Counted from the stretch's first letter, positions 1-30,533 are shown. The stretch is 32,000 bases of DNA from Candidatus Babelota bacterium (GCA_039809905.1 JBDHVY010000001.1:120001-152000); one strand, 5' to 3'. A program made the numbers and translations. Notes: generated by a model not told the origin, from the sequence alone.

Positions 1-337
1 AGAATCAAAAAAGAAAGTACATGCAACATTACAAGAAATTGGCGCTGATGAAAATTTGCTCGCTGACGCCCAAAAAAATGGCTTGTATGCTCTACTCAAT
101 AAAATTGATATTCATGAAGAAATTACTCGTCTGAATAGTCATTTAGAAAATTTCGTAACTATTTTGCAGCAATCTGATATGGAAAAAGGCAAACGCCTTG
201 ACTTTACCTTACAAGAATTAGGACGTGAAATTAATACGATTACGGCAAAATGCTCTGATTCAACAATTAGCACCCATGCGATTAACGTCAAAGTTGAAAT
301 TGAGAAAATGCGTGAGCAGATTCAGAATATTGTATAA
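1..337 (+). CDS. yicC: YicC-family protein, C-terminal part (5' end lies left of the window)
   Basis: Frame is open from the window edge (codons phased from nt 2) to TAA 335-337. The sequence ...IHEEITRLNSHLENF...GKRLDFTLQELGREINTITAKC...EIEKMREQIQNIV matches the conserved YicC/DUF1732 C-terminal signature as I recall it. Confidence 0.85.
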   Translation, partial: ESKKKVHATLQEIGADENLLADAQKNGLYALLNKIDIHEEITRLNSHLENFVTILQQSDMEKGKRLDFTLQELGREINTITAKCSDSTISTHAINVKVEIEKMREQIQNIV

Positions 338-404
338 GTTGCTCACGCATTTTTAGATCAAATATTAATTGCTAACCTTGATTGTTCAATCACTAAAAAT
401 ATTT

Positions 405-1217
405 TTAGTAAGAAAACCACCTTTGCCAAAAAGATTTTTTAGCTTCTTCTTGTCTGCGCGTTGCAGACTTTAAGTGCAGCTTTGGATATAATGCAGCATC
501 ATTTAATTCTTCTTTTATATTTTTCATACTTTCTTGAAAAAAACTGGCGGGCAATTTGCTTTGCTTAATAAAAGCAACTTTATCTAAAAGAGTTTCTATT
601 TTTTCTCTATAACTTTCAGCATCAAATGTAAGAATATCTCGTGGTTCATAGTCTTTAGGCTCCGAGAACAACCGTATCTCGTCTCCTAATTTCCTCAGCT
701 CTGACATGATAGAGTTTACCTTATCTGCTAATAATCCAAACAAGCATTTGTTTAAATCGATTTTAATAAGTAATTTATCGGCATAAATATAAACTTTTAC
801 TAGCTCTTCTAACGATGAATCAGTTATTTTTATATTGTTTTTGCATTTATTTATTATTTCAACAATTTTCTTAAATGTTTCAATATCCGACAGACCAATA
901 AGGGGATCCGCTGTATCCGCTAAAGCACTTCTTATAGCTTCACTCCAGTCAACATCGTCCTGAGAAAAAATTTGACCGTGCTCGATGTTATTTATTTCAT
1001 AAATATAAACTTGATTTTCCTTTAATTCTGATCGAATTTTATTTTTTTTATAGTTAAGTATCGCACTTGATCTCTTGCTTAAATCCATACGAGACATGGG
1101 TCTTTGCAGTCTAGGAACCGTACTCATTCCATAAATATCGCAGGTAATACACATCATCAAGAATAATACCTTTATAGATATGACAACCTTATTTTTATTG
1201 TAATTATTCATTTTCAT
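405..1217 (-). CDS. Hypothetical secreted protein (no recognisable domain)
   Basis: 270-codon ORF with an ATG start preceded by AGGGA. N-terminus is K-rich then hydrophobic (VVISIKVLFLMMCITCDIYG), which is signal-peptide-like. It lies between the two yicC 3' copies. Confidence 0.6.
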   Translation of the reverse strand: MKMNNYNKNKVVISIKVLFLMMCITCDIYGMSTVPRLQRPMSRMDLSKRSSAILNYKKNKIRSELKENQVYIYEINNIEHGQIFSQDDVDWSEAIRSALADTADPLIGLSDIETFKKIVEIINKCKNNIKITDSSLEELVKVYIYADKLLIKIDLNKCLFGLLADKVNSIMSELRKLGDEIRLFSEPKDYEPRDILTFDAESYREKIETLLDKVAFIKQSKLPASFFQESMKNIKEELNDAALYPKLHLKSATRRQEEAKKSFWQRWFSY

Positions 1218-7322: not shown

Positions 7323-8651
7323 CTATTGGCTCAATACACCTAATTTTTCATAAACATTATTTATAAAACCATCTCTTCTGCAGATAATCTTCTGTTTTTG
7401 TATTTCAAATGATTCTAAACAAGTACCACATTCATATGATAGAGCTTCGGTGACATCTAACTTACTCATTTGACAAGCTAATGCCTTTATTTTTGGCAAA
7501 TTATTATAATTTTTATCATTCAAATAACGATCTACATAAGATTTTTTGGCTAATAATGTTTTATAATCACTATCATATTTTTTAATTAAATAGTCTGCAA
7601 AAAATGAATTTATTTTTTTAGGACTATTATCAGCGGACATTCTGATTTTATAAAGAAGTTCTTTCCTTTTAACATCTTCAAACATTTCTTTAAGATCAGA
7701 TTGATTCATGTTTTCGGTTAGGCAAGCAAGTTGATCAGAAAAATTACATGTATCAGATCCTAAATTTTTAGATTGAGACCATAGATGATTTATAATCTTT
7801 TTACGCATATCTTGATCAGGATAGCCAATAGTTATATGTTCACCAAACCTACCAGAACGCTTCAATGCCGTATCAAGATTTTCAAAATTATTAGTCGCTG
7901 CAATCACTACCACATCACAATCTTTAGGCGTATTTAATCCATCCATTTCAGTCAAGAATTGAGTAATGATCTCCTTGCCAACACTATCCTCAGAATTACG
8001 AGATGGAAAGCAATCAATCTCATCAATAAAAATAATCGATATCCCTCTCCTTTGTATTTTTTTACCATATTCTATTGCTTGATTTCTTGCTTGCTCAAAG
8101 AGTTCCCGAATCATGGCTTTTGACTCTCCAAAATACTTTTGAGAAAACTCAGAACCCACACAAGAAATGAAAGGAATGCCTAATTCACCCGCAATAGCCT
8201 TGGCAAGAAACGTCTTACCTGTTCCAGGATCACCTAAAAAGAGAAGACCTCGTGGTAAAGAAGTGCTTAATGCTTGATCACAATGCTTGACCAACTCAAC
8301 AAAATCTATCGCTTCTTGAGGAACCCCAACATAATCGGTAAATCTTGTTTCATTATCATCAGGATTGAGTACGATAAAACTATGCGTAGTTGTAATAGCA
8401 CGTTTATACAAGATAAGGGCTACTGTCATTAACGCACCAACCGTAAAGATAGTAGCACAGCTCCTTACCAATTCTTTTACTATGAGATCTTTATAATTCA
8501 ACTCATAGGAAACATCTAAATCAGAGCAATGCGATAGAGAATAATTCATCAATAAAAAGCACAAGATAAATGACTTTAATTTCTTTTTTGTTATCAGAAG
8601 CATCTGTATTCTCGCATATAAAAATATAAAAAATGTTTTTTTATTATACAT
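7323..8651 (-). CDS. Membrane-anchored FtsH-like AAA+ ATPase lacking the M41 protease domain
   Basis: Walker A GDPGTGKTFLAKAIA, Walker B IIFIDEIDC, second region of homology AATNNFENLDTALKRSGRFGEHI. No HEXXH anywhere. The roughly 100 aa after the AAA lid are unrecognisable. Hydrophobic segments lie near the N-terminus. The start is uncertain: the longest ORF begins with TTG at 8660, and ATGs occur at 8651 and 8603. Confidence 0.85.
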   Translation of the reverse strand: MYNKKTFFIFLYARIQMLLITKKKLKSFILCFLLMNYSLSHCSDLDVSYELNYKDLIVKELVRSCATIFTVGALMTVALILYKRAITTTHSFIVLNPDDNETRFTDYVGVPQEAIDFVELVKHCDQALSTSLPRGLLFLGDPGTGKTFLAKAIAGELGIPFISCVGSEFSQKYFGESKAMIRELFEQARNQAIEYGKKIQRRGISIIFIDEIDCFPSRNSEDSVGKEIITQFLTEMDGLNTPKDCDVVVIAATNNFENLDTALKRSGRFGEHITIGYPDQDMRKKIINHLWSQSKNLGSDTCNFSDQLACLTENMNQSDLKEMFEDVKRKELLYKIRMSADNSPKKINSFFADYLIKKYDSDYKTLLAKKSYVDRYLNDKNYNNLPKIKALACQMSKLDVTEALSYECGTCLESFEIQKQKIICRRDGFINNVYEKLGVLSQ

Positions 8652-8683
8652 TAAAAACAATTTTTATATAGCAAGAAACAGAC

Positions 8684-9725: not shown

Positions 9726-9800
9726 TGGTGCCGGGGGTCGGAATTGAACCAACGACGCGAAGCTCTTCAGGCTTCCGCTCTACCACTGAGCTACCCCGGC
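9726..9800 (-). tRNA. tRNA-Phe (anticodon GAA), CCA encoded
   Basis: The reverse complement folds as a cloverleaf: GCCGGGG TA GCTC AGTGGTA GAGC G GAAGC CTGAAGA GCTTC GCGTC GTTGG TTCAATT CCGAC CCCCGGC A CCA. It has a 7-bp acceptor stem, TTCAA T-loop and anticodon GAA. Confidence 0.95.
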
Positions 9801-9896: not shown

Positions 9897-10727
9897 TTAT
9901 TGGCTACAACATAATGGCTTTGCTCTTCCCGCTTCCATTGCCTCAGGAACTGGAATCAAATCACCCGTAATAACATCAAAAATAAAGCCATAAACCGGAA
10001 TATTTGAAGGAATAAGAGGATGATTTCTTATTTTTTTGACATCCTCAAGAACGGATTCAAATAATCCATTATTAATCGTTAACCAGTCAATAGGATCATA
10101 ATCAATATTTTCTTTTTTACCGCAACAGGTTCCCGCACTTTGCCATTGACACGAAGAATTTTTCTCTAGAACATCAAGCGTTACATTGCAATTTTTAACT
10201 AAAGTAGCCTTCAATGAGTTTTCTTGTAATAATTCTCCCATAACTTCTGGCGTAAATTTTTGCATACCACAATCAGTATGTTGGATCAAAAATATTTCTT
10301 CTACGCCCAACAATTTATAGAGAATAACCAATGATCTAATCCAATCATCGTTAACTCGTGCTCCCGCATTACGCATTATATAGGTACCTTTGGCAACCGC
10401 AGCTAAAAAACCGTTAAGGCGATGATCCATACAAGTTACAATAGCTGCTCTTGTTGGCGCAATCATATCTGGCTGGGGAACATAGGTACGCTCAAAAATC
10501 TTATCTGCTGCTATGATAGCCGCGCAAAGAGGACTATTATTTAAATTGGGAACATTTTCATGCGCATTGCCCGATTCTAGTCCATGGTCTTTTTTGCAGT
10601 TACACTCTTTGCTCATCTTCTTTTCCACCACTATTTTTTTACTATTTATTTTTGCTATCACCTGTTTGGCCAGAAATGGTATTATAAGGCAAAATACAAG
10701 TAAAATACAGAATGATTCTCTTTTCAT
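9897..10727 (-). CDS. Exported beta-class carbonic anhydrase (Cab-like)
   Basis: Zinc-ligand motifs CMDHR and HTDCG sit in the context VTCMDHRL...IMRNAGARVNDDWIRSLVILYKLLGVEEIFLIQHTDCGM...VYGFIFDVITGDL. ATG at 10727 is preceded by AGGGGA; the longer ORF to 10781 starts with TTG. Leader is MKRESFCILLVFCLIIPFLAKQVIA. Confidence 0.85.
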   Translation of the reverse strand: MKRESFCILLVFCLIIPFLAKQVIAKINSKKIVVEKKMSKECNCKKDHGLESGNAHENVPNLNNSPLCAAIIAADKIFERTYVPQPDMIAPTRAAIVTCMDHRLNGFLAAVAKGTYIMRNAGARVNDDWIRSLVILYKLLGVEEIFLIQHTDCGMQKFTPEVMGELLQENSLKATLVKNCNVTLDVLEKNSSCQWQSAGTCCGKKENIDYDPIDWLTINNGLFESVLEDVKKIRNHPLIPSNIPVYGFIFDVITGDLIPVPEAMEAGRAKPLCCSQ

Positions 10728-11965: not shown

Positions 11966-12907
11966 ATGTTTGGTACTATTTTGGCCTATGCACTTTTAGT
12001 AATTTATATACCTGAAATTATGAGTTCACCTATGAAAATAACTAAAGCTGTTATTCCTGCTGCAGGTCTTGGCACACGGTTTTTGCCTTATACAAAAGCA
12101 GTCCCCAAAGAGATGTTGCCAATTTTAGAAAAACCATCAATTCAATTAATTGTAGAAGAAGGTCTTAAATCAGGTATCACTCAATTCACTATTATCGCCA
12201 ATGATGATAAGCCTGAATTGTACAATCACTTTTCTCACCTGCCACAATTAGAAAATCTGCTTGAAAGCAGAGGTAAATCAGCCCTTTTAGATAACATTAA
12301 TGCCATTATTGATACTGCACAATTTAGTTTTATCCCACAACCAGTACCATTGGGATTAGGCCATGCCGTTTTACAAGCAAAAGAGACCGTTGGCAATGAA
12401 TATTTTGGTATCTTTTTGCCTGATGAAATTATGATCAGCAACGTTGCTGCACTTGCACAACTTATTGCCGTTGCAGAAAAATATAATGCTTCTGTCATTG
12501 GTGTCCAAAAAGTACCTCGTGAAAAAGTTTCATCTTATGGCATTATTGCAATCAAAGAACAATTAGAAGATGGCATCTTTGATATTGATTACTTAGTTGA
12601 AAAACCATCGATTGATCAAGCACCATCGGATTACGCTCTTGCAGGGCGCTATGTACTATCTCCTGATGTTTTTGCAGCATTAGAAATCACACAGCCTGGC
12701 GCTGGCAATGAAATTCAACTCACCGATGGTATTGCACACATGATGAATAATGGCGAACGGGTTATTGCATGCGTTTTAAACACATCTCGATATGATGTAG
12801 GCAACCCTCTAGGATGGATCCAAGCAAATATCGAAATTGCCTTTAATCATCCAACATTTGGACCAATTGTAAAAAGCTTCTGCCAAAAACTATTGGAACA
12901 AAAATAA
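11966..12907 (+). CDS. galU: UTP--glucose-1-phosphate uridylyltransferase with a short hydrophobic N-terminal extension
   Basis: KAVIPAAGLGTRFLPYTKAVPKEMLPI, GLGHAV, VEKP and GRYVLSPDVF. A strong RBS (AAGGGGG) precedes the ATG at 11966. An internal ATG at 12032 (MKITKAVIPAAG) is the alternative start. Confidence 0.9.
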   Translation: MFGTILAYALLVIYIPEIMSSPMKITKAVIPAAGLGTRFLPYTKAVPKEMLPILEKPSIQLIVEEGLKSGITQFTIIANDDKPELYNHFSHLPQLENLLESRGKSALLDNINAIIDTAQFSFIPQPVPLGLGHAVLQAKETVGNEYFGIFLPDEIMISNVAALAQLIAVAEKYNASVIGVQKVPREKVSSYGIIAIKEQLEDGIFDIDYLVEKPSIDQAPSDYALAGRYVLSPDVFAALEITQPGAGNEIQLTDGIAHMMNNGERVIACVLNTSRYDVGNPLGWIQANIEIAFNHPTFGPIVKSFCQKLLEQK

Positions 12908-12910
12908 ATC

Positions 12911-14083
12911 TCAGAATGTTTGAGGAACATGAGACTTTAATAATAGTTTTACAAGTTTTCTATCATTACCAACTTCGTCATACTTCCATAAGTAATTAAC
13001 ATAATCAATTGGCTTTTTATTTTTTTTATTTTTCTTTTCGATATCGATAGTCCCAACTTTGAGTAATCTCTGAATAGTTTTTACATGCAAATGTTTGCAC
13101 GCATAATGTAAAACAGTCATACCCTTATCATCAGCTATATTTACATCTGCTCCGAGTCTAATGAGAGCATCCAGCATTTCTTGAGGATCACTACAACGAC
13201 CTTTGAAAAATAAATCAGACTGACAACCACATTTATAATTAAGAAGATGCAATACTGTTTTACCAGATGTAGATCGTACATTAACATCTAAATATCCATT
13301 CGTAATAAGTCCTTGCATTAGAGTAAATTTATTAAAATAAAACAAATAATCAATCATTTCTGCTTGATATTGAGCAAAATATTTGCCTGCCAACAAAACT
13401 AATTCTTGTTCTTTATAAGCATTTCTACATAACAAATAAAGCAACTCTTTATCGTTCTTGTGAGGAAATAATCCAGAAATATTTATGCCTTGATCATGCA
13501 AATGTGATAATTCAGCGCATCCATGTTTCAATCTGATTTTTAAATCATTTATCTCTTGGTAATTTTTTCTTACTTGTTTGTCTGATGCATCTTGCCTTAT
13601 TTTTAATATCTCTTTTTCTTCTTTATCTTTTTGTTTTATTATCGCTTGGTTTTTACGCTCTTTGGCTTTTCTTATAGCCTCATATTCTTTCGCATAAATA
13701 TGCATATAATTATTTATCGAAAGTTCAGTCAAATTGTATGGAGAAAAATCAAATACCTCTTTTTTCCTTTGTTCTGCATGAAAAGACCATAAAAAACTAA
13801 AAACAGGAAATTTATTTTGTTGAGCAAAATAAATGAGACCTTTAGTACATCTATTATAGCCACGAGCAATATCAGTAAAACAAATACTTCCTGGAGCAAT
13901 ACGTTGATATACATTAACAAAAGAACATGTTTGCAATTTTTTAGATACACTTGAGAAACGACCTATAGATTGTAAATCCAGATCCATACTTAGAACTATT
14001 TCCTTTTCCATACAATAATTCGAGATGCAAAAAAACAGAGCAATTTTAGCAAAAAAAATATTTTTAAAATGATAGTGCTTCAT
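12911..14083 (-). CDS. Leader + F-box-like + ankyrin-repeat protein (subfamily 1)
   Basis: Hydrophobic N-terminus (IFFAKIALFFCISNYC). F-box-like segment LSMDLDLQSIGRFSSVSKKL. Shared module C..GYNRCTKGL...FSFLWSFHAEQR. C-terminal ANK repeats (GKTVLHLL..., LIRLGADVNIADDKGMTVLHYACKHLHVKTIQRLLKVG). Confidence 0.8.
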   Translation of the reverse strand: MKHYHFKNIFFAKIALFFCISNYCMEKEIVLSMDLDLQSIGRFSSVSKKLQTCSFVNVYQRIAPGSICFTDIARGYNRCTKGLIYFAQQNKFPVFSFLWSFHAEQRKKEVFDFSPYNLTELSINNYMHIYAKEYEAIRKAKERKNQAIIKQKDKEEKEILKIRQDASDKQVRKNYQEINDLKIRLKHGCAELSHLHDQGINISGLFPHKNDKELLYLLCRNAYKEQELVLLAGKYFAQYQAEMIDYLFYFNKFTLMQGLITNGYLDVNVRSTSGKTVLHLLNYKCGCQSDLFFKGRCSDPQEMLDALIRLGADVNIADDKGMTVLHYACKHLHVKTIQRLLKVGTIDIEKKNKKNKKPIDYVNYLWKYDEVGNDRKLVKLLLKSHVPQTF

Positions 14084-14105
14084 TATCTTACAGCCTTTAT
14101 GGTTG

Positions 14106-15209
14106 TTATTTTAAAGTTTTATATTTTTTTCCAGAATTTCGTTGTGCATTGCTATTATCACGTTGTTGAGCATGTTGTTTGAGCATATTGCGAATTAATA
14201 TAATTCGATTTTTTTCTTCTGAACTATACATTTGAGATAACATTCTTCTTTTTGAAACATAAAAGCTTGCTTTTTTCTTCCTCATATTGCGCGCTTTGGT
14301 ATTGATATCAGGATGAGTAAGTAATTCAATTACCGAATCACAATAGTGCCGTTCTACTGCATAATGCAATGGCGTCTCTAGTTTTTTATTGCGGACATTC
14401 ACATATATTCCCTTTTTTAACAATACTGGAATAATATCACCACGCTCAAAAGCAACTGCTGAATGAAGCAATGTATTATTAAATTTATCAACAATGTTGA
14501 TGTCTAATATTCCTACATCAATCAATCTTTCAATTAAACAAGGAGATATATCAGGCATCATAAAGACTATATCCTCAATAGAGATAACCCCAAAGCATAC
14601 ATCATTGACAAATGATAGCTTATTGTCTTGAGATGCCTTGTGCATTATTGTTTTTAATTCTGGCAAAAAAGATGATCCTATTATATCTACATTACTACCA
14701 GACAAAATAATCCCTAAATCTTTATCATTTTTAATATGCAACAACCATGAGACATGAGAAATAATATCCTGTTTAATCCTTTCCGGCGTATCATAAAATC
14801 GACGATATTCAACCATATGTTCTGCCAGTGTTCCTTTGTCTGGGTCTCTGTGACGAGCATGGAGCTGCCATAAGTAAGCAAACATTCTTTCATCTTTAAT
14901 ACATGCATAATGTCCCAACGCTTTACTGCATGCATAATAATTAGCAGCTAATCGCTGACATCCATAGGTTGTATGGCACCTTTTAGAACAAGATAAGCAC
15001 ATATTTTCTGTATCATATAATGTATTACAACTGGTAGAACATTGCTTCAAGCGTCCAATACATTGATAAGAAATAAGTGGCTGTATTTCTCTCTGTATAA
15101 TATCAGAAGATAACAATATCATTGCACACCTATTTTCCTGATAATTCATAGCATGAATAGATAGGCCGTAAAGCAATAATAAATATATATATCGCACGTA
15201 ACAATTCAT
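14106..15209 (-). CDS. Leader + F-box-like + ankyrin-repeat protein (subfamily 1)
   Basis: Leader IYLLLLYGLSIHA. F-box-like segment LLSSDIIQREIQPLISYQCIGRLKQCS. Shared module YYACSKALGHYA...FAYLWQLHARHR. ANK repeats NNTLLHSAVAFERGDIIPVLLKKGIYVNVRNKKLETPLHYAVERHYCDSVIELL. Sits 22 nt upstream of the next ANK gene, which has an AAAGG RBS. Confidence 0.8.
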   Translation of the reverse strand: MNCYVRYIYLLLLYGLSIHAMNYQENRCAMILLSSDIIQREIQPLISYQCIGRLKQCSTSCNTLYDTENMCLSCSKRCHTTYGCQRLAANYYACSKALGHYACIKDERMFAYLWQLHARHRDPDKGTLAEHMVEYRRFYDTPERIKQDIISHVSWLLHIKNDKDLGIILSGSNVDIIGSSFLPELKTIMHKASQDNKLSFVNDVCFGVISIEDIVFMMPDISPCLIERLIDVGILDINIVDKFNNTLLHSAVAFERGDIIPVLLKKGIYVNVRNKKLETPLHYAVERHYCDSVIELLTHPDINTKARNMRKKKASFYVSKRRMLSQMYSSEEKNRIILIRNMLKQHAQQRDNSNAQRNSGKKYKTLK

Positions 15210-15302
15210 GATGCAGAGCTCACTCTTGTTTTATTTTATTAAAAAGTTATACACTCAGACTACACGGCTTCTCTATTATAGGGTCAAAAAACTGGGATTG
15301 CT

Positions 15303-16214
15303 ATGAATTTGGCACAGAAAATAACCTATTTTTTTTTAATAAGTGGCAGTATTGTTCTCTGCAATGAAATCCCAACAAAAATGAGCTATACGCAGCGCCG
15401 CAGCAAATTTGCTCGTGAAAAAAAAGAAAAACTTGCACAAAACCGCGCAGCTCGTAATCACCGCCCTTGGTTCCGTAACCGACCACCACATAAACACCGC
15501 ATAACTCATATGTTGGGAGAATTTGCCGAAGATGTGATAAAAATTAATTTAGGTCTTTTTTCATGGGATTCTCTAAAAGTTTTTGTCATCACCGCACCAT
15601 TTTTTGCAGGAGCACGTATGATTGATGAAAAATTACACAACTGTTTTTTTGATCATAAAAATAAAAAAAACAGGAATGAACCTGCTCAATGGTGCAAAGA
15701 AGTTGCGCGCTTGAGCATAGGTATTCCTATTGCTCTTTTAGGAACTCAAGCTTTTTTTAGCCGAGATGATGATATGCAAACGACGAGCCAGGTTTTTTTG
15801 ACCGGTATGCCATTTGTATTACTCGCAAAAGATATTTTTAAGGAACAGCTCAATTTTGATCTCTGTAAACGCCCATATCACCAAGTTTTTGCCAAAGAAC
15901 AACGTAAATTTGGCGGGTTTCCTTCAGGTCACCTCGCTGAAGCTACCTATATGGCAGTACTTTATGGCATGCGCTTTGGACCTAACTATGCAATACCTCT
16001 TGGTACCGTTGCAACTTTCGTTACCATTGTATTTTTATCAAGCAATCGCCATTATCTCTCTCAAATGATTGCAGGAGCTGGATTTGGTGCTATGTATGCC
16101 CTATCTGCAAACAGATTGATAGATTCAAAATTAGCAAAAAAACATGATTTAAAAATCGGTTTATCTGCAGGAGATCATGGAGAACCAGTCATGAAATTAT
16201 CGATGAAGTTTTAG
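15303..16214 (+). CDS. PAP2-like (type 2 phosphatidic acid phosphatase superfamily) membrane protein, third catalytic motif degenerate
   Basis: Several hydrophobic segments. K..(6)..RP-like CKRPYHQ, then PSGH (FPSGHLAEAT). The third motif reads SSNRHYLSQMIAGAG, where the family normally has SR.....H...D, so the SR is absent and D is replaced by Q. The 3' end overlaps the convergent gene by 26 nt. Confidence 0.55.
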   Translation: MNLAQKITYFFLISGSIVLCNEIPTKMSYTQRRSKFAREKKEKLAQNRAARNHRPWFRNRPPHKHRITHMLGEFAEDVIKINLGLFSWDSLKVFVITAPFFAGARMIDEKLHNCFFDHKNKKNRNEPAQWCKEVARLSIGIPIALLGTQAFFSRDDDMQTTSQVFLTGMPFVLLAKDIFKEQLNFDLCKRPYHQVFAKEQRKFGGFPSGHLAEATYMAVLYGMRFGPNYAIPLGTVATFVTIVFLSSNRHYLSQMIAGAGFGAMYALSANRLIDSKLAKKHDLKIGLSAGDHGEPVMKLSMKF

Positions 16215-17061
16215 TCTGAAACTGGTTATTTTTTTCTACAAGATGTTCTAATAAGAATTTTGCTAATTCTTCATTTTCAAATTTATCACGAACAATTTCA
16301 AGCGCCGTTAAACCTTTTTTTCCTATTTTGGTATCAATTCCACGCTCAGGAACTGAGAGATAATTGAGCAGAATAGGACCATTTCCAAGAAAACATAATG
16401 ATTTAAGAAAATCGTTTTCATAGTTTGTGAATTGCAAATATTGATTGAGCACTACTCGTACTCGTTTATTATTACCATTTAATATCGCAACCCATGCATC
16501 TTGATAAGCAGCTTGATTATCATGCTCTTGCTTAATCTGTACGGGTAATTCTCCATAATAAAAAGCGATTCTACGTTCATCATTTAATTCCAGTATAGAA
16601 CCCTCAAACAATGTATCATAATCATAAGGTACTTTATGATCCATTCCATAAATCATATTAAAGTTTTTTTTGATCCTAGCATCAATCAACTTAGAATGAG
16701 TATTTACTACGCGCAACAATATTTTCGAAAGTTTTTCTACTTCGCCATTATATTTTTGAGAAAATATATGTTCTACCGGTGATACCATTGGAGCATGAAA
16801 ATACAAAAAATTTTCAACTGATTCAAAATCAGCATAGCAAGGATTGCTCATAATAAGGGGAATATCTGTTGTTTTATTAAAATCATGACTCGTTCTTTTA
16901 AGTCTCGATAAAGATACACTATTCAAACGCAAATCAATTTCAGTTTTGGCATCTTTTGGTAATAACGCTAAATGGTTTTGATCTTGCACTTGAAGCATTC
17001 CTGATACAGAATAAAAAATAGACAACACACAACAAAACAACCATTTTGTATAATTTCTCAT
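16189..17061 (-). CDS. Leader + F-box-like + C-terminal ANK-like protein (subfamily 2)
   Basis: ATG at 17061 is preceded by AAGGA; the longer ORF to 17079 starts with TTG. Leader WLFCCVLSIFYSVSG. F-box-like segment LLPKDAKTEIDLRLNSVSLSRLKRTSHDF. C-terminus GLTALEIVRDKFENEELAKFLLEH. Colinear paralog of 19844-20680. Confidence 0.75.
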   Translation of the reverse strand: MRNYTKWLFCCVLSIFYSVSGMLQVQDQNHLALLPKDAKTEIDLRLNSVSLSRLKRTSHDFNKTTDIPLIMSNPCYADFESVENFLYFHAPMVSPVEHIFSQKYNGEVEKLSKILLRVVNTHSKLIDARIKKNFNMIYGMDHKVPYDYDTLFEGSILELNDERRIAFYYGELPVQIKQEHDNQAAYQDAWVAILNGNNKRVRVVLNQYLQFTNYENDFLKSLCFLGNGPILLNYLSVPERGIDTKIGKKGLTALEIVRDKFENEELAKFLLEHLVEKNNQFQTKTSSIIS

Positions 17062-17112
17062 TGATACATATCCTTGCAATAACTTATTTTTATAACGATT
17101 ATTTTATTTTAC

Positions 17113-17246
17113 ATTAATTTCTATTGAAAACAACGCTTACATTGTCTTGCATCATCAATAAAATCAGTAATACTAAAAAATATGTATCTTAATTAAAAAA
17201 GGATCTGTATGAAAAAAATATTATCCACGCAATAAAAATGAGTAAA
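17113..17246 (+). pseudogene. Decapitated duplicate of the MIOX promoter region, RBS, start codon and an internal MIOX fragment
   Basis: 17113-17211 aligns with 20733-20830 (about three quarters identical by eye), including AAAAGGATCTGTATG. After the ATG (17209), the sequence AAAAAAATATTATCCACGCAATAAAAA matches MIOX nt 21010-21036. This implies an internal deletion of roughly 175 bp. The remaining ORF is 8 codons. Confidence 0.8.
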
Positions 17247-17321
17247 AAAACATGAATGCAGCTTAGATTGAGTGTTGGTGATCACGGAGAATTAGTCATG
17301 AAATTATCAATGAAGTTTTAA
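17244..17321 (+). pseudogene. Remnant copy 2 of the PAP2-like gene 3' end
   Basis: ...LSVGDHGELVMKLSMKF* compares with the intact gene tail GLSAGDHGEPVMKLSMKF* (16158-16214). No upstream PAP2 coding sequence is present. Stop is 30 nt from the stop of the convergent 763-aa ANK gene. Confidence 0.8.
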
Positions 17322-17350
17322 AAAATCATTAAGCAATATCATAATTTTAA

Positions 17351-19642
17351 TCAGAAGGACCATCTCACAGCTAATTTTTCATGCAATTTTACCGCAAGAA
17401 AACAAACCATTGCAGCAGAAAAAGTCATCATTCCAATTTTTCTTAGGGAAATAAAATGCGATATATTTGCCATCTTATCAACTGAATTTATTGTTGGCAC
17501 ATCTGGTTCATTACTCAATAAATTTGTTTTTGATTGAGACATTTTTTTTGTAATCCCATCCAAAACTTTGTTGAATCCTGAATTTTTCGATATTATTTTA
17601 GTCATTACATCCGACAAACAAAAAAATGGATTTTGTGCTTTAATATATTCCTTGGCTAATTCAATATCCGCTCCAGCCTTTATCAAATTTTCTGCAATGT
17701 CAGGAAAAATTGTATTCCGTAAGAATACTTGACCAAGAGGTGTAATATCATAATCACAAAATTTATAAACAATGTTGGGATCTGCTCCATAAGCTAACAA
17801 AATCTCTGTTGCTGTTCCAAATTCACCATCAATCGCATAAACAAGTGCGGATTTTCCATCTTTATTCTTAGCATTGATATTAATGCCTTTTTTGATGAGC
17901 TTTTCTACTATGAGAGATTTATTAGAAATGTACCAATATATATGATGCAAAATAGTGTTGCCTTTATCATCAACAGTGTCTATCTTTGCATCTGAATCAA
18001 TCAGCAAATATATTAATTTCTTTTTTGATAACAAATGATTACTCAATATTCTGGGCACTAATGTTGATATATCAACATTATGCCCGAATTGACCCTTATC
18101 TAAAAGTAATTTCATTACCCGATCTAATTTTCCATCACCATCAGTTTGCTCAGCTATAGTTTCTACAGCCAAATTTCCATTATTATCGCGAATATTTACG
18201 TCAATATTTAATTGGAGTAATGTTTCTATTGCTTCAGTGCGCAACAACCTACATGCTACATGAAGAACAGTTTCTCCTCTTTCATTCTTAATACTTGGAT
18301 CAACTCCTCTTGAAAACATTTTCTTTATCACACTAGATTTTGGATTATTAAATTTTCTTACATAATAATGCAAAATAGTTTCACCATCATGATACATTGC
18401 ATCTACTTTAATTCCGCTATCAAGAAACATTTCTATAATTTTATCTAGATCATCATCTCTACTTCCTTGAAAAAATCTGCTTTTGCGAAGAACTACACTT
18501 AAAAGATCTTTTTGTTTATATTGTTCATTCTCACTAACAAGATTCACTTCTGCCCCTTTATCTAACAAAAAGCGTACAAGCGAAGCTTCAGGATATTTAA
18601 GAGCAAAATATAGTAAAGATGCTCCATCTTTATCCACCGCATTTATATCATTAAAAAATAAATTTTCTAATATTTCATAAATGAGATCTTTACCAAATAA
18701 ATTTGGCATATCCCAATAATCCAATGATCTCTCCCACAAACAAAATCTATAATCTCTGATAAGATCTTTATATTTTTTAATCAAATTAATAGTTAATTCT
18801 TTTCTACCAGAAGACATTGCCTTAGCAACAATCTTATATATATATTCAGAAAAATTGTATTTTTTTTGGCTTTTGTACAATGCTTGAACATTTTTGATAT
18901 CATTCAAAAAAACTCCAATTGCCAACACATCATCCTCATCGAATGTTTGATGAGAAAGCAACATTGTTTTTATACCAATCCTATTTTTATCTTTCAAAAA
19001 CTTTTTTAACTTTTGAGAGTTGCAATTTTGAATATCTTTCTTACTAGTACAATTTCCGGCATACACACCTAAACAATCATCTAAGGTAGGATCTGAAATC
19101 CCGATAACCTGTGCTACTCCATCTATTCTTTCACATGCGTGATGTTGCCACAAATGCTCAAACATAATCTTATTAGTATCGTTTTTTTCCTTTTTATATC
19201 TTATTGCATGAAAGGCCAAAATCTTGGTACATGCATCAAAATCATTTTTAAAAATAGAACATCCAAAAGAGCTACACAGGCTATTCTGAGGCTCTTTACA
19301 AACTATAATATCACGATAACAGTCGTTATAATGATGACATGTTCTACCAAAACGACCTATTGATTGGTAATCAAAAAAATGAATCATCATATTTCCTGCT
19401 ATATCTTTTGGAAGCGGAATAACAACAGCACCTAATGATATGATCTTCTTTTCTTGAGATTTAGTTTGAGTTTTGTCTTGTTGCTCCATCAGATATCCGG
19501 CTTTCCAAAAAAGACAAACTTGTTTTTTTGACTCCATTCCACATGAATACATAAAAGAAAATAAAAAAACCAAGACACTGAGAGTTTGCTTGCTCATAAT
19601 TACATGATTTCGTAGAAAAAACTTATATATTTTATCGAACAT
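17351..19642 (-). CDS. Large leader + F-box-like + multi-ankyrin protein with C-terminal hydrophobic tail (subfamily 1)
   Basis: 763 aa. Leader LSVLVFLFSFMYSCG; an alternative ATG at 19597 would start at MSKQTL. F-box-like segment IPLPKDIAGNMMIHFFDYQSIGRFGRTCHHY. Shared module FDACTKILAFHA...FEHLWQHHACER. At least 8 ANK repeats (e.g. GETVLHVACRLLRTEAIETLLQLNIDVNIRDNNGN, GKSALVYAIDGEFGTATEILLAYGADPN). C-terminal hydrophobic segment IGMMTFSAAMVCFLAV. Confidence 0.85.
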   Translation of the reverse strand: MFDKIYKFFLRNHVIMSKQTLSVLVFLFSFMYSCGMESKKQVCLFWKAGYLMEQQDKTQTKSQEKKIISLGAVVIPLPKDIAGNMMIHFFDYQSIGRFGRTCHHYNDCYRDIIVCKEPQNSLCSSFGCSIFKNDFDACTKILAFHAIRYKKEKNDTNKIMFEHLWQHHACERIDGVAQVIGISDPTLDDCLGVYAGNCTSKKDIQNCNSQKLKKFLKDKNRIGIKTMLLSHQTFDEDDVLAIGVFLNDIKNVQALYKSQKKYNFSEYIYKIVAKAMSSGRKELTINLIKKYKDLIRDYRFCLWERSLDYWDMPNLFGKDLIYEILENLFFNDINAVDKDGASLLYFALKYPEASLVRFLLDKGAEVNLVSENEQYKQKDLLSVVLRKSRFFQGSRDDDLDKIIEMFLDSGIKVDAMYHDGETILHYYVRKFNNPKSSVIKKMFSRGVDPSIKNERGETVLHVACRLLRTEAIETLLQLNIDVNIRDNNGNLAVETIAEQTDGDGKLDRVMKLLLDKGQFGHNVDISTLVPRILSNHLLSKKKLIYLLIDSDAKIDTVDDKGNTILHHIYWYISNKSLIVEKLIKKGININAKNKDGKSALVYAIDGEFGTATEILLAYGADPNIVYKFCDYDITPLGQVFLRNTIFPDIAENLIKAGADIELAKEYIKAQNPFFCLSDVMTKIISKNSGFNKVLDGITKKMSQSKTNLLSNEPDVPTINSVDKMANISHFISLRKIGMMTFSAAMVCFLAVKLHEKLAVRWSF

Positions 19643-19704
19643 AAATATATCTTAATTGCAGATAAACAAAATAAATAAATAGTCATCGTTACTTCTTTTT
19701 TTCT

Positions 19705-19821
19705 TTGCATACTGAAAACAGGTTAATTGATTCCACATTAACAAAAAAACAGGAAATGCAATTCGGGCTTTCTGCTGGTAATAGCAGAGAGCCCGTTATG
19801 AAATTATCAGTGAAATTTTAA
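19705..19821 (+). pseudogene. Remnant copy 3 of the PAP2-like gene 3' end
   Basis: 19712-19821 aligns with about 16105-16214 of the intact gene (by eye about three quarters identical). Tail is GLSAGNSREPVMKLSVKF*. A 1-nt indel near 19763 breaks the frame. Stop is 23 nt from the stop of the convergent gene 19844-20680. Confidence 0.75.
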
Positions 19822-19843
19822 TTGTTTTATTCTAAAAAAAATT

Positions 19844-20680
19844 TTATGCTCCATGTTCCAATAAAGCTTTCTCTAATTCCTTGTTTCCGTAGAGTATTGC
19901 AAGTTCAAGAGCTGTAAGAGATCCTACTTCTTCGGTATAATCAATACCACGTTTTGGAATTGATAAATAATCCAACAAAATAGTGCTATTTCCAAGTTTA
20001 CATAAAGGCTCAAGCAATGCATGAAAATCTGCAAATTGCTTGTAATGATTAAGTACTACTTTCAATCGTGCAATATTTCCATTTTTTGCTGCATATAATG
20101 CATCTTGATGAGCTGCATCGAGAATGCCATTGATAATAGAATCATTTTGAATAAAATCCAACTCTTCATCTAATTTGATTTGTCCTGGCAATTTTCCAAA
20201 ATAAAAGGCTATTCTATCATTTTCTGTTAGCTCTAACTTATCAACAAAATACGCCCCAAAACTGCCACATTTTATAGAAAAATATACTTGTATAATATTT
20301 GAATCAATTTTTTCCATATGATTATTAATTATAGCAGCACATCTCTTTCTTAATCCTTGAGCATCATTCATTCCCAATGCAGGTATGCGGGGAACCTGAT
20401 GATATAAAAACTTTTCCACCAATTTAAAATCATCATAAGAAGGATTTGTTAAGATAGGTCCTAAAATAGTCTCTATATTAGTTGCATCATTCAAGTATTG
20501 ACATACGCTTTTAATTCGTCCCAAAGTTTGAATATCAGAATGCAATTGAACACCAAGTAAAGAAGCGTGTGGCAAAAATTGCACTTGTGGCTTTGGTTTT
20601 GCTACAGACACTAGCATACACGATGTCTGAGAAAAAAGAGAAATTGTTATCGTGAAAAAATATAATGATATATTACTCAT
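19844..20680 (-). CDS. Leader + F-box-like + C-terminal ANK-like protein (subfamily 2)
   Basis: Leader ISLYFFTITISLFSQTSC. F-box-like segment FLPHASLLGVQLHSDIQTLGRIKSVCQYL. ANK-like segments DALYAAKNGNIARLKVVLNH and SLTALELAILYGNKELEKALLEHGA. Colinear with 16189-17061 (RIAFY.G.LP.QIK, LL.YLS.P.RGID). Confidence 0.75.
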   Translation of the reverse strand: MSNISLYFFTITISLFSQTSCMLVSVAKPKPQVQFLPHASLLGVQLHSDIQTLGRIKSVCQYLNDATNIETILGPILTNPSYDDFKLVEKFLYHQVPRIPALGMNDAQGLRKRCAAIINNHMEKIDSNIIQVYFSIKCGSFGAYFVDKLELTENDRIAFYFGKLPGQIKLDEELDFIQNDSIINGILDAAHQDALYAAKNGNIARLKVVLNHYKQFADFHALLEPLCKLGNSTILLDYLSIPKRGIDYTEEVGSLTALELAILYGNKELEKALLEHGA

Positions 20681-20732
20681 AGGAAAAATCTTTCATTGTT
20701 GTGCATAACTATAAAATCATCGATAAATATAT

Positions 20733-20827
20733 ATTAATTTCTATTAAAAACAACATGGCGATTTTTCTTGCATCACGAGTAAAATAAGCAATACTAAAAT
20801 ATATCTCATCTAAAAAAAAGGATCTGT
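20733..20827 (+). promoter_or_regulatory. Conserved MIOX upstream region (putative promoter plus RBS), duplicated at 17113-17208
   Basis: TTGCAT, 16 nt, AATACT is present in both copies with the same spacing, followed by AAAAGGATCTGT and the ATG. Conservation between the two copies is the main evidence. The promoter hexamers are only a moderate match to consensus. Confidence 0.4.
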
Positions 20828-21673
20828 ATGAAAAAAAATCTGTTTTTATATACATTGCTCACTACACTTAACATAGCTGCGATACAATCTTGCGATAATG
20901 CTAAACCTGAGCATGATTTTCGCGATTATGATAATGTTTCAGAAAAAGTCCTCAAATTTTATCGCTTGAACCACACACACCAAACACTTGATTTCGTTGT
21001 TGCTCAGAAGAAAAAATATTATCCACGCAATAAAAAAGTAATGAGTATTTGGGATGCTATGAAAATGCTTGATACTATTGTTGATGATAGTGATCCCGAT
21101 TTAAATAGCGCACAAACGGTACATGCATTTCAAACAGCAGAACAATTACGCAAAGATGGTCACCCTCGATGGCTTATTTTAACAGGCCTTATTCATGATC
21201 TTGGCAAAGTTCTTATTCTTTTTGGTGAACCTCAATGGGCAGTTGTTGGAGATACTTTTCCCGTAGGATGTGCATATTCAAACAAGATAGTTTTTTCAGA
21301 TTATTTTTCACTTAATGCTGATATACACAACAGGAAACTCAACCATAAATATGGAATCTATCAACCATGTTGTGGTCTTGATAATGTACATATGTCATGG
21401 GGACATGATGAATATTTGTATCAAGTAGTTAAACAATATCTACCTGATGAAGCATCATATATTATCAGGTATCATTCATTTTATGCAGCACACAAGCAAG
21501 GAGAATATGACTATTTAATGGATGACTATGATCGATCAATGATGAAATGGGTAACTTTATTCAGTCATTATGATTTGTATTCAAAAAGCCCAGAACCGGT
21601 GAACGTTTCTGAGCTTATCCCTTTTTATCAAGAATTAGTAGCGGAATTTTTTCCCGAAAACCTAAGATGGTGA
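20828..21673 (+). CDS. myo-Inositol oxygenase (MIOX, eukaryote-type HD-domain di-iron oxygenase) with an N-terminal leader
   Basis: Colinear with animal MIOX as I recall it: FRDY, YRLNHTHQTLDFV, VDDSDPD, HAFQTAE, LTGLIHDLGKV, GEPQWAVVGDTFPVGC, YQPCCGLDNVHMSWGHDEYLYQ, IRYHSFY, YDLYSKS, and it ends ...LRW. The N-terminus MKKNLFLYTLLTTLNIAAIQSC is leader-like. Confidence 0.92.
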   Translation: MKKNLFLYTLLTTLNIAAIQSCDNAKPEHDFRDYDNVSEKVLKFYRLNHTHQTLDFVVAQKKKYYPRNKKVMSIWDAMKMLDTIVDDSDPDLNSAQTVHAFQTAEQLRKDGHPRWLILTGLIHDLGKVLILFGEPQWAVVGDTFPVGCAYSNKIVFSDYFSLNADIHNRKLNHKYGIYQPCCGLDNVHMSWGHDEYLYQVVKQYLPDEASYIIRYHSFYAAHKQGEYDYLMDDYDRSMMKWVTLFSHYDLYSKSPEPVNVSELIPFYQELVAEFFPENLRW

Positions 21674-29122: not shown

Positions 29123-29546
29123 CCATAAAAAACTTTAATTTTTTTGCTCTAATGTATATAAACGATTATTCATATCCTCTATCATTCGCTGTTGTGATAC
29201 AAAATGCTTAATCTTCATAAAAAATCCCTTTTTTAAATTATAAATAATACCCATTCATAGTAAAAAAATAATTATTATGTCAATTAAAATTTTGGCTCCT
29301 AATCCTAACCTCATTAAAAAGACCAAGACATGCTAGATATTAGCAAAACTATGAAAAGATTCACCATTACGAGAAAAAAATAGACATACAAAATATCAAA
29401 ATAGTGATGAGCGGTATTGGTCTATATTATCACCGAAAAAAAACGAACTAGCATGCTCAGCAAGGATTGCTATTCTTTTTTTTGGTTTGTATACTTTAGG
29501 CCAACTATTTTTCAATCAAACCATTCAAGAACAAAAGGGAGTTGTA

Positions 29547-30533
29547 ATGTTTCGTATTTATTATCGATTACTAGCACTATTGGCACTCAATATATCTGCG
29601 CAGATCATATCAATGGATGCCCCAAATCAAGTAATTATCCAAGAAATCACCGCTATTAAAAAACCTCAAAGAATTGGGTTTATCAATTCATATTCCCTGA
29701 TGATTGCATCTAAAAAAGGTGCTTTTATAGTTAATTGGCCAGACAACGCAACAATCGAAACCATATATAAAAATAATGATATGTTTCCAGTATATTGTTT
29801 TCTTAATAGTAAAAAAAATGCTATAGTAACCTCCGATCCAGAGCAAGTAAATCTTTATGATTTAGAAGGCAAAATAACATGGAAATCAAATAAGCAAAAT
29901 GCATCAACCGTTTTCACTCCAAGTGATAAGCTCTATACACTCAGCGGTAGCACACTTGAATGTAATACTGGTAAAACATTTGAGGTTCCTGGCGATGCGC
30001 CTTTTTGGTATGGCATTATAAGCTCCCATCCGACCAAAGAAAAGATTTTTTACACTAACTACAAACCTCAATCAAACTCGATACTGTTCACCGTAAACCT
30101 TGATGAAGATCCAGTTATTACCACATCACAAGAGTTGCCAAATCCTTCAAATAAAAGCGATAACATGACTTTTGCTCAACTGCACAGCCCATGTGAAAAT
30201 ATCATTGCACTCTCTTATCCTTTGAATGAAACCTGGACTCTTTATAATCCTGAAAACAATACTTTTATCCTAGAAGATATTCAATGTCGCACTTTGGCTT
30301 TTCATCCTACAAAATCATTATTAGCCATGCTCACCAAAGATGGATATATTGAACTGTATGATTTTAAAATCAAAAAAACAATTTCAAAAACTACTGAATC
30401 TCTTGGACAAGTTCCAGCATGGGAATCAGTCAACGAACGCGTAATCGATTTCTCTGAAGAAGGAGACTTTTTAGCAGTTATTGTAGATAAAAAATGTTTT
30501 GTCATTTCAAACTTATATCCAAAAATTGATTAA
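29547..30533 (+). CDS. Secreted WD40-like / beta-propeller protein (hypothetical)
   Basis: ATG at 29547 is preceded by AAGGGAG; the longer ORF from 29487 starts with TTG. Leader YRLLALLALNISAQ. Recurrent WD-like strands include LAFHPTKSLLAMLTKDGYIELYDF, ISSHPTKEKIFYTN and IDFSEEGDFLAVIVDKKCFVIS. Confidence 0.55.
   Translation: MFRIYYRLLALLALNISAQIISMDAPNQVIIQEITAIKKPQRIGFINSYSLMIASKKGAFIVNWPDNATIETIYKNNDMFPVYCFLNSKKNAIVTSDPEQVNLYDLEGKITWKSNKQNASTVFTPSDKLYTLSGSTLECNTGKTFEVPGDAPFWYGIISSHPTKEKIFYTNYKPQSNSILFTVNLDEDPVITTSQELPNPSNKSDNMTFAQLHSPCENIIALSYPLNETWTLYNPENNTFILEDIQCRTLAFHPTKSLLAMLTKDGYIELYDFKIKKTISKTTESLGQVPAWESVNERVIDFSEEGDFLAVIVDKKCFVISNLYPKID

Follow-up and report, generated by a model that had tools for sequence, protein, structure and literature searches.

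A five-gene array encoding leader-bearing proteins with a divergent F-box-like segment, candidate mimics of host ubiquitin-ligase adaptors, in a Dependentiae bacterium

Layout of the array

We analysed a 32,000-nucleotide (nt) stretch of Candidatus Babelota bacterium DNA (GCA_039809905.1 JBDHVY010000001.1:120001-152000; hereafter the window), in which an open reading frame (ORF) survey places an array of five minus-strand ORFs within positions 12911-20680. A preliminary description of this DNA had proposed that the five genes, divided into two subfamilies, each encode a hydrophobic leader, a segment resembling an F-box and ankyrin (ANK) repeats, the architecture of effectors that engage the host SCF (Skp1–cullin–F-box) ubiquitin ligase. 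All five genes lie at the coordinates it gave, except that the ORF of C296 is open further, to a TTG at 17079, and every peptide that it quoted is present in the window proteins. The organism carrying the array is a Dependentiae (TM6) bacterium, as its syntenic loci (below) show. The Dependentiae are widespread, almost uncultured protist parasites, and the few cultured representatives are obligate intracellular parasites of amoebae and flagellates. The genes, whose labels carry the protein length, and the parts of their products (in amino acids, aa) are these:

12911-14083, minus strand: A390, ORF, subfamily 1
14012-14083, minus strand: A390 leader (aa 1-24), followed by Met25
13934-13993, minus strand: A390 shortened F-box-like segment (aa 31-50)
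13637-14005, minus strand: A390 N-terminal family domain (aa 27-149)
aa ~300-361, minus strand: A390 ANK repeats (Pfam)
14106-15209, minus strand: B367, ORF, subfamily 1
15150-15209, minus strand: B367 leader (aa 1-20), followed by Met21
15036-15116, minus strand: B367 F-box-like segment (aa 32-58)
14748-15134, minus strand: B367 family domain (aa 26-154)
aa ~225-305, minus strand: B367 ANK repeats (Pfam)
15303-16214, plus strand: PAP2-superfamily membrane phosphatase gene, between B367 and C296; not a family member
16189-17079 from the TTG, first ATG at 17061, minus strand: C296, ORF, subfamily 2
16999-17061, minus strand: C296 leader
16879-16965, minus strand: C296 F-box-like segment (aa 39-67)
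17351-19642, minus strand: D763, ORF, subfamily 1
19538-19597, minus strand: D763 leader, followed by Met36
19328-19420, minus strand: D763 F-box-like segment (aa 75-105)
19001-19423, minus strand: D763 family domain (aa 74-214)
aa ~330-700, minus strand: D763 large ANK array
17384-17440, minus strand: D763 C-terminal hydrophobic tail (aa 735-753)
19844-20680, minus strand: E278, ORF, subfamily 2
20618-20680, minus strand: E278 leader, followed by Met22
20492-20578, minus strand: E278 F-box-like segment (aa 35-63)
C-terminus, minus strand: E278 degenerate ANK-like region

B367 sits 22 nt upstream of A390, so these two genes are probably co-transcribed. Syntenic loci were collected through E278 homologues and through the highly conserved PAP2 neighbour; they comprise 289-357 kb metagenome contigs, candidate division TM6 bacterium SOIL31 and four metagenome-assembled genomes, three of them of 1.2-1.5 Mb. 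D763 probably begins at Met16 (nt 19597) rather than at the first codon of its ORF; the leader read from there, MSKQTLSVLVFLFSFMYSCG, matches the leaders of its counterparts at loci L009 and L002. As proposed, each of the five proteins opens with a hydrophobic leader. The F-box-like segment was said to follow within about 30 aa; this is not so for D763, in which it starts about 40 aa after the leader, and the segment of A390 is shortened.

A common N-terminal domain

We searched 1.84 billion cluster representatives exhaustively with HMMER, using a profile of the three subfamily-1 N-termini. The search returned 106 representatives at E ≤ 1e-3, of which 59 reach E ≤ 1e-10; one of the 106, P0077, is a tetratricopeptide-repeat (TPR) false positive and was discarded, leaving 105 real members. 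Family members are counted here as cluster representatives at 50% identity, and counts out of 59 use the E ≤ 1e-10 set. A word-indexed homologue search with the subfamily-1 N-terminal alignment gave no matches. Scanning viral contigs with the family patterns found no relative either, and so lends no support to a sharing of the family with giant viruses. All members that we looked up are unnamed or 'hypothetical' in their source records.

The family plan starts with the leader, followed by LP.D[IV]x8-10 L.LQSIGR[LF]..[TV][CS]K..N. It continues with a loop containing up to four conserved cysteines and with the motifs Y..CTKAL...A, F.HLW..H...R and M..Y...Y, and ends in ANK repeats in highly variable number, or in none. 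The module behind the F-box-like segment that had been described as common to subfamily 1 is borne out: its C, K, L, A, F, LW, HA and R positions are invariant in A390, B367 and D763.

Subfamily 2 had been credited with a different middle region, and here the preliminary description needs correction. C296 and E278 are 34% identical to each other (E 2e-41). Neither was used in the subfamily-1 profile, yet both match it at ~1e-6, exactly in the F-box-like segment, so the common motif is not a product of chance. When subfamily 2 (E278, C296 and eight homologues) is compared with subfamily 1 using hhalign, the two profiles align over 120 columns (96.9%, E 1.7e-10), with DF..VEKFLY falling on NY.ACTKAL and RIAFYFG on M..YAG.Y. 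The two middle regions are therefore one homologous module, of which subfamily 2 carries a divergent copy. A 542-residue protein of the relative L002 has motifs from both subfamilies. By these profile alignments, both subfamilies have one and the same N-terminal domain of ~140 residues, made up of an F-box and a helical, often four-cysteine module.

The helical module comprises ~90 residues and is usually reached via the four-cysteine loop, which subfamily 2 does not have. The four cysteines lie in or around this loop between F-box and helical module (columns 71, 86, 91 and 109 of the family alignment A4; aa 115, 123, 128 and 138 in D763). All four are present in 27/59 members, and they could form a zinc site or disulfides. 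The module had been presented as new, and we detected no relative of it by Foldseek comparison of the domain model with the PDB and with BFVD viral models or by sequence search of the PDB. A poxvirus F1L/Bcl-2-like helical module, suggested by a weak sequence match (E 0.16-0.84), was considered and rejected: the PDB Foldseek search with the confident model returns no F1L or Bcl-2 fold.

A probable divergent F-box in the first segment

The first segment of the domain is very probably a divergent F-box. Among the 59 members, 9 match PF12937 (best 3.8e-5) and 6 match PF00646, and no other Pfam family is matched by more than two. The family consensus matches the F-box-like profile at E 3e-5 and 24.1 bits (cut-off 24.3), with LP on profile positions 2-3, and the F-box profile at 19.1 bits (cut-off 20.5). 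At the family level the match is statistically significant, though slightly under the curated cut-offs. Searched against the sequences of solved structures, the family profile scores best on the F-box of Legionella AnkB (5k35_A, E 0.065), and further PDB sequence matches fall at the F-boxes of KDM2B (E 0.098) and FBXW8 (E 0.93). Residues 35-83 of C296 weakly match the F-box region of Xanthomonas XopI (E 0.055), the only NCBIfam match of that protein.

The F-box signature is kept in register across the 59 members: L in 36, P in 29, D in 41 (E in a further 11), I in 31 (V in a further 14), L in 40, Q in 47, I in 34, G in 37, R in 46, T in 32 or V in 20, C in 25 or S in 25, and K in 30. Aligned by hhalign to 14 F-box segments, a comparison that is a lead and not a database test, the first 48 match columns of the family score 96.9% in register and a reversed control 0.1%; subfamily 2 alone scores 48.6% against the same segments.

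An AlphaFold 2 (AF2) model of D763 aa 60-227, computed with the 59-sequence alignment (predicted local distance difference test (pLDDT) 89.6, predicted template modelling score (pTM) 0.71), opens with three short helices (20-30, 33-42 and 44-54); behind them come the cysteine loop and then five helices of greater length. Foldseek comparison of the whole domain with the PDB and viral models returned nothing significant. The only local matches of low root-mean-square deviation, in the PDB and among the viral models, are F-box proteins: the rice D3 F-box superposes at 1.6-1.9 Å over 34-36 columns, and for an F-box protein of Port-miou virus the value is 1.8 Å over 41 columns. Being short, these matches have E-values that are not significant. 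The preliminary description had named the lack of an F-box profile match and of a Skp1-compatible three-helix fold as refuting it; this check does not refute the idea, given the family's Pfam matches, slightly under the curated cut-offs, the AnkB match and the model, while the five proteins on their own have no Pfam F-box match. For subfamily 2 the F-box case is weaker and runs mainly via homology to subfamily 1.

Ankyrin repeats and C-termini

The canonical ANK repeats ascribed to A390, B367 and D763 all score above the Pfam gathering threshold (Ank_4, 38.5 bits; Ank_2, 43.2 bits; and Ank_2, 107.1 bits, respectively). Subfamily 2 had been given one or two ANK-like repeats. For E278 this stands at a sub-threshold level (Ank_3, E 0.0045; 17.8 versus a cut-off of 22.3 bits); C296 has no Pfam ANK match, and weak ANK matches occur in 4/10 members of the subfamily. 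The family also includes ANK-less proteins, of 289 aa in L002 and 291 aa in L003. The hydrophobic tail noted at the end of D763 is present (aa 735-753), and 9/21 long family members end in a similar one. The window proteins terminate in ...VPQTF, ...YKTLK, ...SSIIS, ...VRWSF and ...EHGA, 0/5 being a CaaX motif.

Leaders and the leader–Met junction

Measured from the nearest upstream Met, the family leaders have a median length of 19 aa, with an uncharged stretch of 15 residues in the median and 20 at most. K or R lies near the leader start in 66/85. At position -1, 65/82 carry C, G, S or A, and at position -3, 62/82 carry L, I or V; an aliphatic -3 and an invariant Met at +1 are atypical for signal peptides of the general secretory (Sec) pathway cleaved by signal peptidase I. 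On these features the leaders seem to fit cleavable Sec signal peptides better than membrane anchors, which, with calls of a heuristic kind, supports the Sec-type leaders of the preliminary description. We rejected a lipoprotein reading, with a lipidated junction Cys: G, S or A are found at position -1 as often as Cys is, and the residues before it do not fit a lipobox.

Directly after the leader stands a Met in 82/105 representatives, followed by Glu or Asp in 56/82. About a dozen further representatives start at ME or MD because the gene caller picked the junction Met, and E278 itself was called from it in the source assembly (run SRR27308757, of which a 24-kb contig matches the window); gene callers likewise started P0002 and P0005 there. 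Across ~190 kb of Dependentiae loci, the leader–Met junction occurs in 18/18 leader-bearing family genes versus 6/33 other leader-bearing ORFs (Fisher p = 5e-9), and the ordinary exported proteins of these loci have A-A, A-E or A-N junctions. The Met is kept in about 90% of family members. In a reading taken up below, and quite unlikely as a whole, it would provide a stabilising, eukaryote-like mature N-terminus after signal-peptidase cleavage and thereby spare the protein the host N-degron pathway, or it would be a second start codon that yields exported and non-exported isoforms.

Two ORFs outside the family share the junction Met, one encoding a WD40-like beta-propeller at 29487-30533 (plus strand; ...LALLALNISAQIIS-MDAPNQ) and the other, with no Pfam match, at 405-1217 (minus strand; ...MMCITCDIYG-MSTVPR). 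Several family members likewise have 'MDAP' behind the leader. A broader class of effectors may carry the junction as its mark. A more ambitious version, which includes the two roles given above for the Met and which we judge quite unlikely as a whole, takes leader-[C/G/S/A]-Met-[Glu/Asp] as the mark of Dependentiae Sec-exported effectors of the host cytosol and the helical module as a new SCF-adaptor linker that possibly binds zinc. At L006 3076-4047 (plus strand), a protein that the A4 and A6 profiles do not cover shows this junction too, and its start looks like an F-box (...PTILG-MEEKNMPYYIDKLPIETKYLILAQFKPKDMRLVNKHLA); a further cryptic F-box family may be represented here.

The leader peptide is kept between orthologues with only 39% overall identity. 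At the DNA level, the E278 leader and the non-coding DNA upstream are equally conserved in four orthologous loci. In L002 (~9960-10000), one extra base within a T-run puts the leader of the E278 orthologue out of frame; as a homopolymer indel in a 6x long-read contig it is probably a sequencing error, and if real it would be a leaderless allele. The PheS ORF of the same locus (15738-16832, minus strand) has an in-frame hydrophobic extension, MPTSLFFVIFLIINFKYGLC-MKSLSQ, which its counterpart in the window lacks. AT-rich upstream DNA can imitate a leader in this way, and signal-peptide counts in such genomes may be inflated.

Growth and divergence of the array

The locus is anchored by the conserved PAP2 gene, which overlaps C296 with its 3′ end, the two genes being convergent. 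Four further features bear on how the array arose:

17235-17320, plus strand: PAP2 3′-end relic 1, 77% over 87 nt, directly 3′ of D763
19711-19820, plus strand: PAP2 3′-end relic 2, 73% over 109 nt, directly 3′ of E278
17110-17198, no strand assigned: C296 upstream region, resembling the E278 upstream region
20730-20819, no strand assigned: E278 upstream region, kept in orthologous loci and resembling the C296 upstream region

Relic 1 reads ...GDHGELVMKLSMKF up to a stop, with an internal stop upstream, and relic 2 reads ...GLSAGNSREPVMKLSVKF up to a stop. The two upstream regions correspond over 17110-17134 versus 20730-20754 (92% over 25 nt) and over 17142-17198 versus 20763-20819 (75% over 57 nt); given this similarity, the C296 upstream region belongs to the duplicated unit. 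The E278 orthologues of L002 and L009 have relic 2 beside them as well. Those of L003 and L010 directly adjoin the intact PAP2 gene; ancestrally, therefore, a single family gene stood convergent with PAP2. Because decayed copies of the PAP2 3′ end adjoin family genes, the array grew by repeated tandem segmental duplication, the unit consisting of the convergent family gene, its promoter and the PAP2 tail, and the copies went on to diverge rapidly.

On the opposite flank of PAP2, the number of family genes at the locus varies from 1 to 7 among relatives. The seven are found in L007 (1249-9782, minus strand), where they stand in tandem between GalU and PAP2, three of them with near-identical leaders and N-termini. 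The recent duplicates there are 46-50% identical, and the L007 genes are a recent duplication burst at the same hot spot. The window paralogues are 21-34% identical, too little for a recent tandem duplication inside the window, which we rejected; the relics show old duplication. The earlier statement that the family is expanding in situ thus finds support in the PAP2 relics and in the copy number but not in the window paralogues, which are old. Family genes are 20-69% identical to their L002 and L003 counterparts, compared with 60-94% for flanking genes and 79-88% for most housekeeping genes, and evolve far faster than their neighbours. The G+C content is 29-33% over the array versus 31-39% in its surroundings. 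A promoter and terminator scan found 37 promoter-like sites versus 46.7 expected and is uninformative.

Proposed function and its alternatives

We lean, with some reserve, towards reading the five genes as one family of exported, eukaryote-like F-box proteins that mimic host SCF adaptors. Each protein would be built, in order, of a cleavable Sec-type signal peptide, a divergent F-box, the helical module and a variable C-terminus, the last made of ANK repeats in A390, B367 and D763, with the membrane tail added in D763, and of degenerate helices resembling ankyrin in C296 and E278. After export and the predicted cleavage of the signal peptide, the proteins would be delivered beyond the periplasm and reach the host side, where the F-box would dock on host Skp1, so that the SCF ubiquitin ligase of the host would accept the protein as if it were one of its own substrate adaptors. 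Serving as a rigid linker, the helical module would join the F-box to the ANK part, and the latter would pick host proteins for ubiquitination. The tail of D763 would fix the adaptor to a membrane, comparable to the farnesylation of Legionella AnkB (PMC11323580).

A number of observations count against this proposal. The F-box escapes single-sequence Pfam searches of the window proteins, none of which matches a Pfam F-box even at E ≤ 1, and the best family scores are marginally under the Pfam gathering cut-offs. Where the third helix canonically has Trp, most members have Tyr or Cys and a few have Trp; A390 lacks most of the first F-box helix, including LP; the local structural matches are too short to be significant; and the AF2 model of E278, from subfamily 2, is poor (pLDDT 54.7). 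The leader calls are heuristic, a Sec leader takes a protein to the periplasm only, with no onward route identified, and D763, which has a leader and is anchored at its C-terminus, could sit in the inner membrane facing the periplasm. Several of these points also fit an alternative that we consider unlikely, if serious, namely that the N-terminal domain derives from an F-box, no longer binds Skp1 and serves as a lineage-specific scaffold or as a delivery or targeting domain before variable cargo, the ANK repeats binding host proteins without ubiquitination. High divergence, the failure of the window proteins to match Pfam, the replaced Trp and the missing helix of A390 all suit such a vestigial domain, as do its compact fusion with a singular helical module unmatched in the PDB or BFVD and the ANK-less members of L002 (289 aa) and L003 (291 aa); export or targeting domains, too, are typically conserved N-terminal domains ahead of variable C-termini. 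Yet the Skp1-facing LP.D[IV] and the three-helix hydrophobic pattern are the best-kept part across ~100 diverged members, which argues for a retained F-box function, and an N-terminal F-box before a variable substrate-binding C-terminus is the canonical architecture.

It seems very unlikely that the proteins instead stay with the bacterium and act in its envelope, as ANK proteins of the periplasm or anchored in a membrane that are engaged, for example, in self-protection, adhesion or surface display and never encounter the host ubiquitin system. Their leaders are of the Sec type only, no type III or IV signal or machinery was seen in the window, the hydrophobic tail of D763 and of 9/21 long relatives is predicted, once the leader is cleaved, to anchor the protein in the inner membrane with most of it in the periplasm, and the four conserved cysteines could form disulfides there. 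An F-box, however, has no known partner in bacteria, fast evolution relative to neighbours and copy-number variation are the usual mark of host-interaction genes, and the signal-peptide ANK proteins of cultured Dependentiae have been interpreted as secreted into the host (PMC4378268, PMC6561590). Highly improbable, in our judgement, is that the leaders are untranslated, the hydrophobic reading being an effect of AT-rich upstream DNA and the leaderless proteins truly starting at the junction Met. Gene callers did begin E278, P0002, P0005 and about a dozen representatives there, the L002 PheS ORF shows that a spurious in-frame extension can occur, the leader is frameshifted in one relative, L002, and inspection upstream of the first Met and of the junction Met revealed no clear Shine-Dalgarno sequence before either. 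Against this, 82/105 representatives keep an open in-frame leader with a median of 19 aa, a basic n-region and a small -1 residue, the peptide is kept between orthologues that are 39% identical overall, and the frameshift in L002 comes from a homopolymer indel on a contig of 6x long-read coverage.

Neighbouring genes

The GalU (UTP-glucose-1-phosphate uridylyltransferase) ORF beside the array (11966-12907, plus strand) carries a hydrophobic N-terminal extension before the usual MKITKAVIPAAG start. The extension is also present in L002 (14755-15696), L003 (13074-14006), L004 (2992-3951), L005 (5464-6459), L007 (289-1242) and L008 (18033-18962). In L008 the leader is fused without an internal Met (MKKMILIAWSLFIVSNCCA-DFTQVIVPMAGLGTR), so it must be translated there. 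An exported or membrane-tethered GalU would be unusual. On the other flank, a myo-inositol oxygenase gene (MIOX, Pfam E 2.9e-102; 20828-21673, plus strand) has a lipoprotein-like leader, LNIAAIQSC, and stands beside the array in all relatives; MIOX is known mainly from eukaryotes. Further away, an AAA ATPase (7323-8660, minus strand) has a hydrophobic N-terminal leader, MLLITKKKLKSFILCFLLMNYSLSHC..., and is 32% identical to its positional counterpart in L002, where other flanking genes reach 64-88%. A single tRNA gene (9729-9800, minus strand; 67.6 bits) is the sole Rfam match of the window. An expanded family of signal-peptide AAA proteins is known from Babela (PMC4378268).

Significance and comparison with known systems

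To our knowledge, the ANK proteins of Dependentiae have no assigned mechanism. If the family of 105 representatives truly has a cryptic F-box, part of the ANK repertoire becomes readable as SCF-ligase mimicry, and standard annotation underestimates the F-box proteins of the phylum. The locus is also a clean example of the growth of an effector array, in which decayed ends of a neighbouring gene mark each duplication. The leader–Met junction gives a simple sequence mark by which to look for further effectors, together with an idea of how Sec-exported proteins could survive in the host cytosol.

The closest parallel is Legionella pneumophila AnkB (LegAU13/Lpg2144; 5K35 with Skp1), a host SCF-adaptor mimic from an amoeba-associated intracellular bacterium that has an N-terminal F-box followed by ANK repeats and is anchored to membranes by its C-terminus (PMC11323580). 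The AnkB-type architecture assigned to the array by the preliminary description applies to A390, B367 and D763; it does not apply to C296, and the ANK repeats of E278 remain below threshold. The differences are substantial. AnkB lacks a signal peptide and enters the host by injection through the Dot/Icm type IV system, whereas the array proteins have Sec-type leaders; its anchor is a farnesylated CaaX motif, whereas the window proteins lack CaaX and D763 has a hydrophobic tail; and it has no helical, four-cysteine module between F-box and ANK. The similarity to AnkB is confined to the F-box (E 0.065), with none over the full length, and NCBIfam Legionella Ank models score 16-56 bits on the window proteins, compared with cut-offs of 450-1400.

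Within the phylum itself, Babela massiliensis encodes 126 ANK proteins, 79 with signal peptides, and Chromulinavorax destructans 98, 78% with signal peptides; F-box, WD40, leucine-rich repeat (LRR) and TPR proteins occur in surveys of Dependentiae, and other ubiquitin-system proteins have been reported in cultured members (PMC4378268, PMC6561590, PMC4776705). F-box proteins have been reported in TM6 (PMC4776705). The surveys counted domains found with standard profiles, including one F-box protein in Babela (PMC4378268, PMC6561590, PMC4776705). The array family thus resembles the signal-peptide ANK and F-box proteins of its cultured relatives, except that it escapes the standard profiles by which those were detected. 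In these three papers, beyond which no wider search was made, we found neither the helical module nor the leader–Met junction (PMC4378268, PMC6561590, PMC4776705).

Other lineages show related solutions. Xanthomonas XopI, Ralstonia GALA and Agrobacterium VirF are likewise bacterial F-box mimics of host SCF adaptors, but they are delivered by type III or IV systems, have LRR or other C-termini and act in plant hosts. Expanded F-box/BTB families of environmental Chlamydiae were reportedly described by Domman and colleagues in 2014. The F-box/BTB proteins of environmental Chlamydiae and the F-box/U-box proteins of Candidatus Amoebophilus asiaticus are large, fast-evolving, lineage-specific adaptor expansions in amoeba symbionts (PMC11323580), as the present family would be; they belong to other phyla and secretion routes, their partner domains are mostly LRR or others and not ANK, and no common helical module has been shown for them. 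Poxvirus ANK/PRANC proteins, as summarised in PMC6561590 from Sonnberg et al. 2008, also combine ANK repeats with a truncated, hard-to-detect F-box that binds Skp1; they are viral and leaderless, and the order is reversed, with ANK first and the F-box C-terminal.

F-box and ANK mimicry by amoeba-associated bacteria is therefore already established, and F-box proteins and signal-peptide ANK proteins have already been reported for this phylum. What is new here is an unannotated family in which a cryptic F-box is fused to a helical, often four-cysteine module without known relative, together with putative export by Sec-type leaders instead of injection, a conserved leader–Met–acidic junction and clear molecular traces of the duplications. 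Current views are not overturned by this; a known strategy, that of AnkB and of the chlamydial and Amoebophilus F-box proteins, would be extended to a new family and a new export route.

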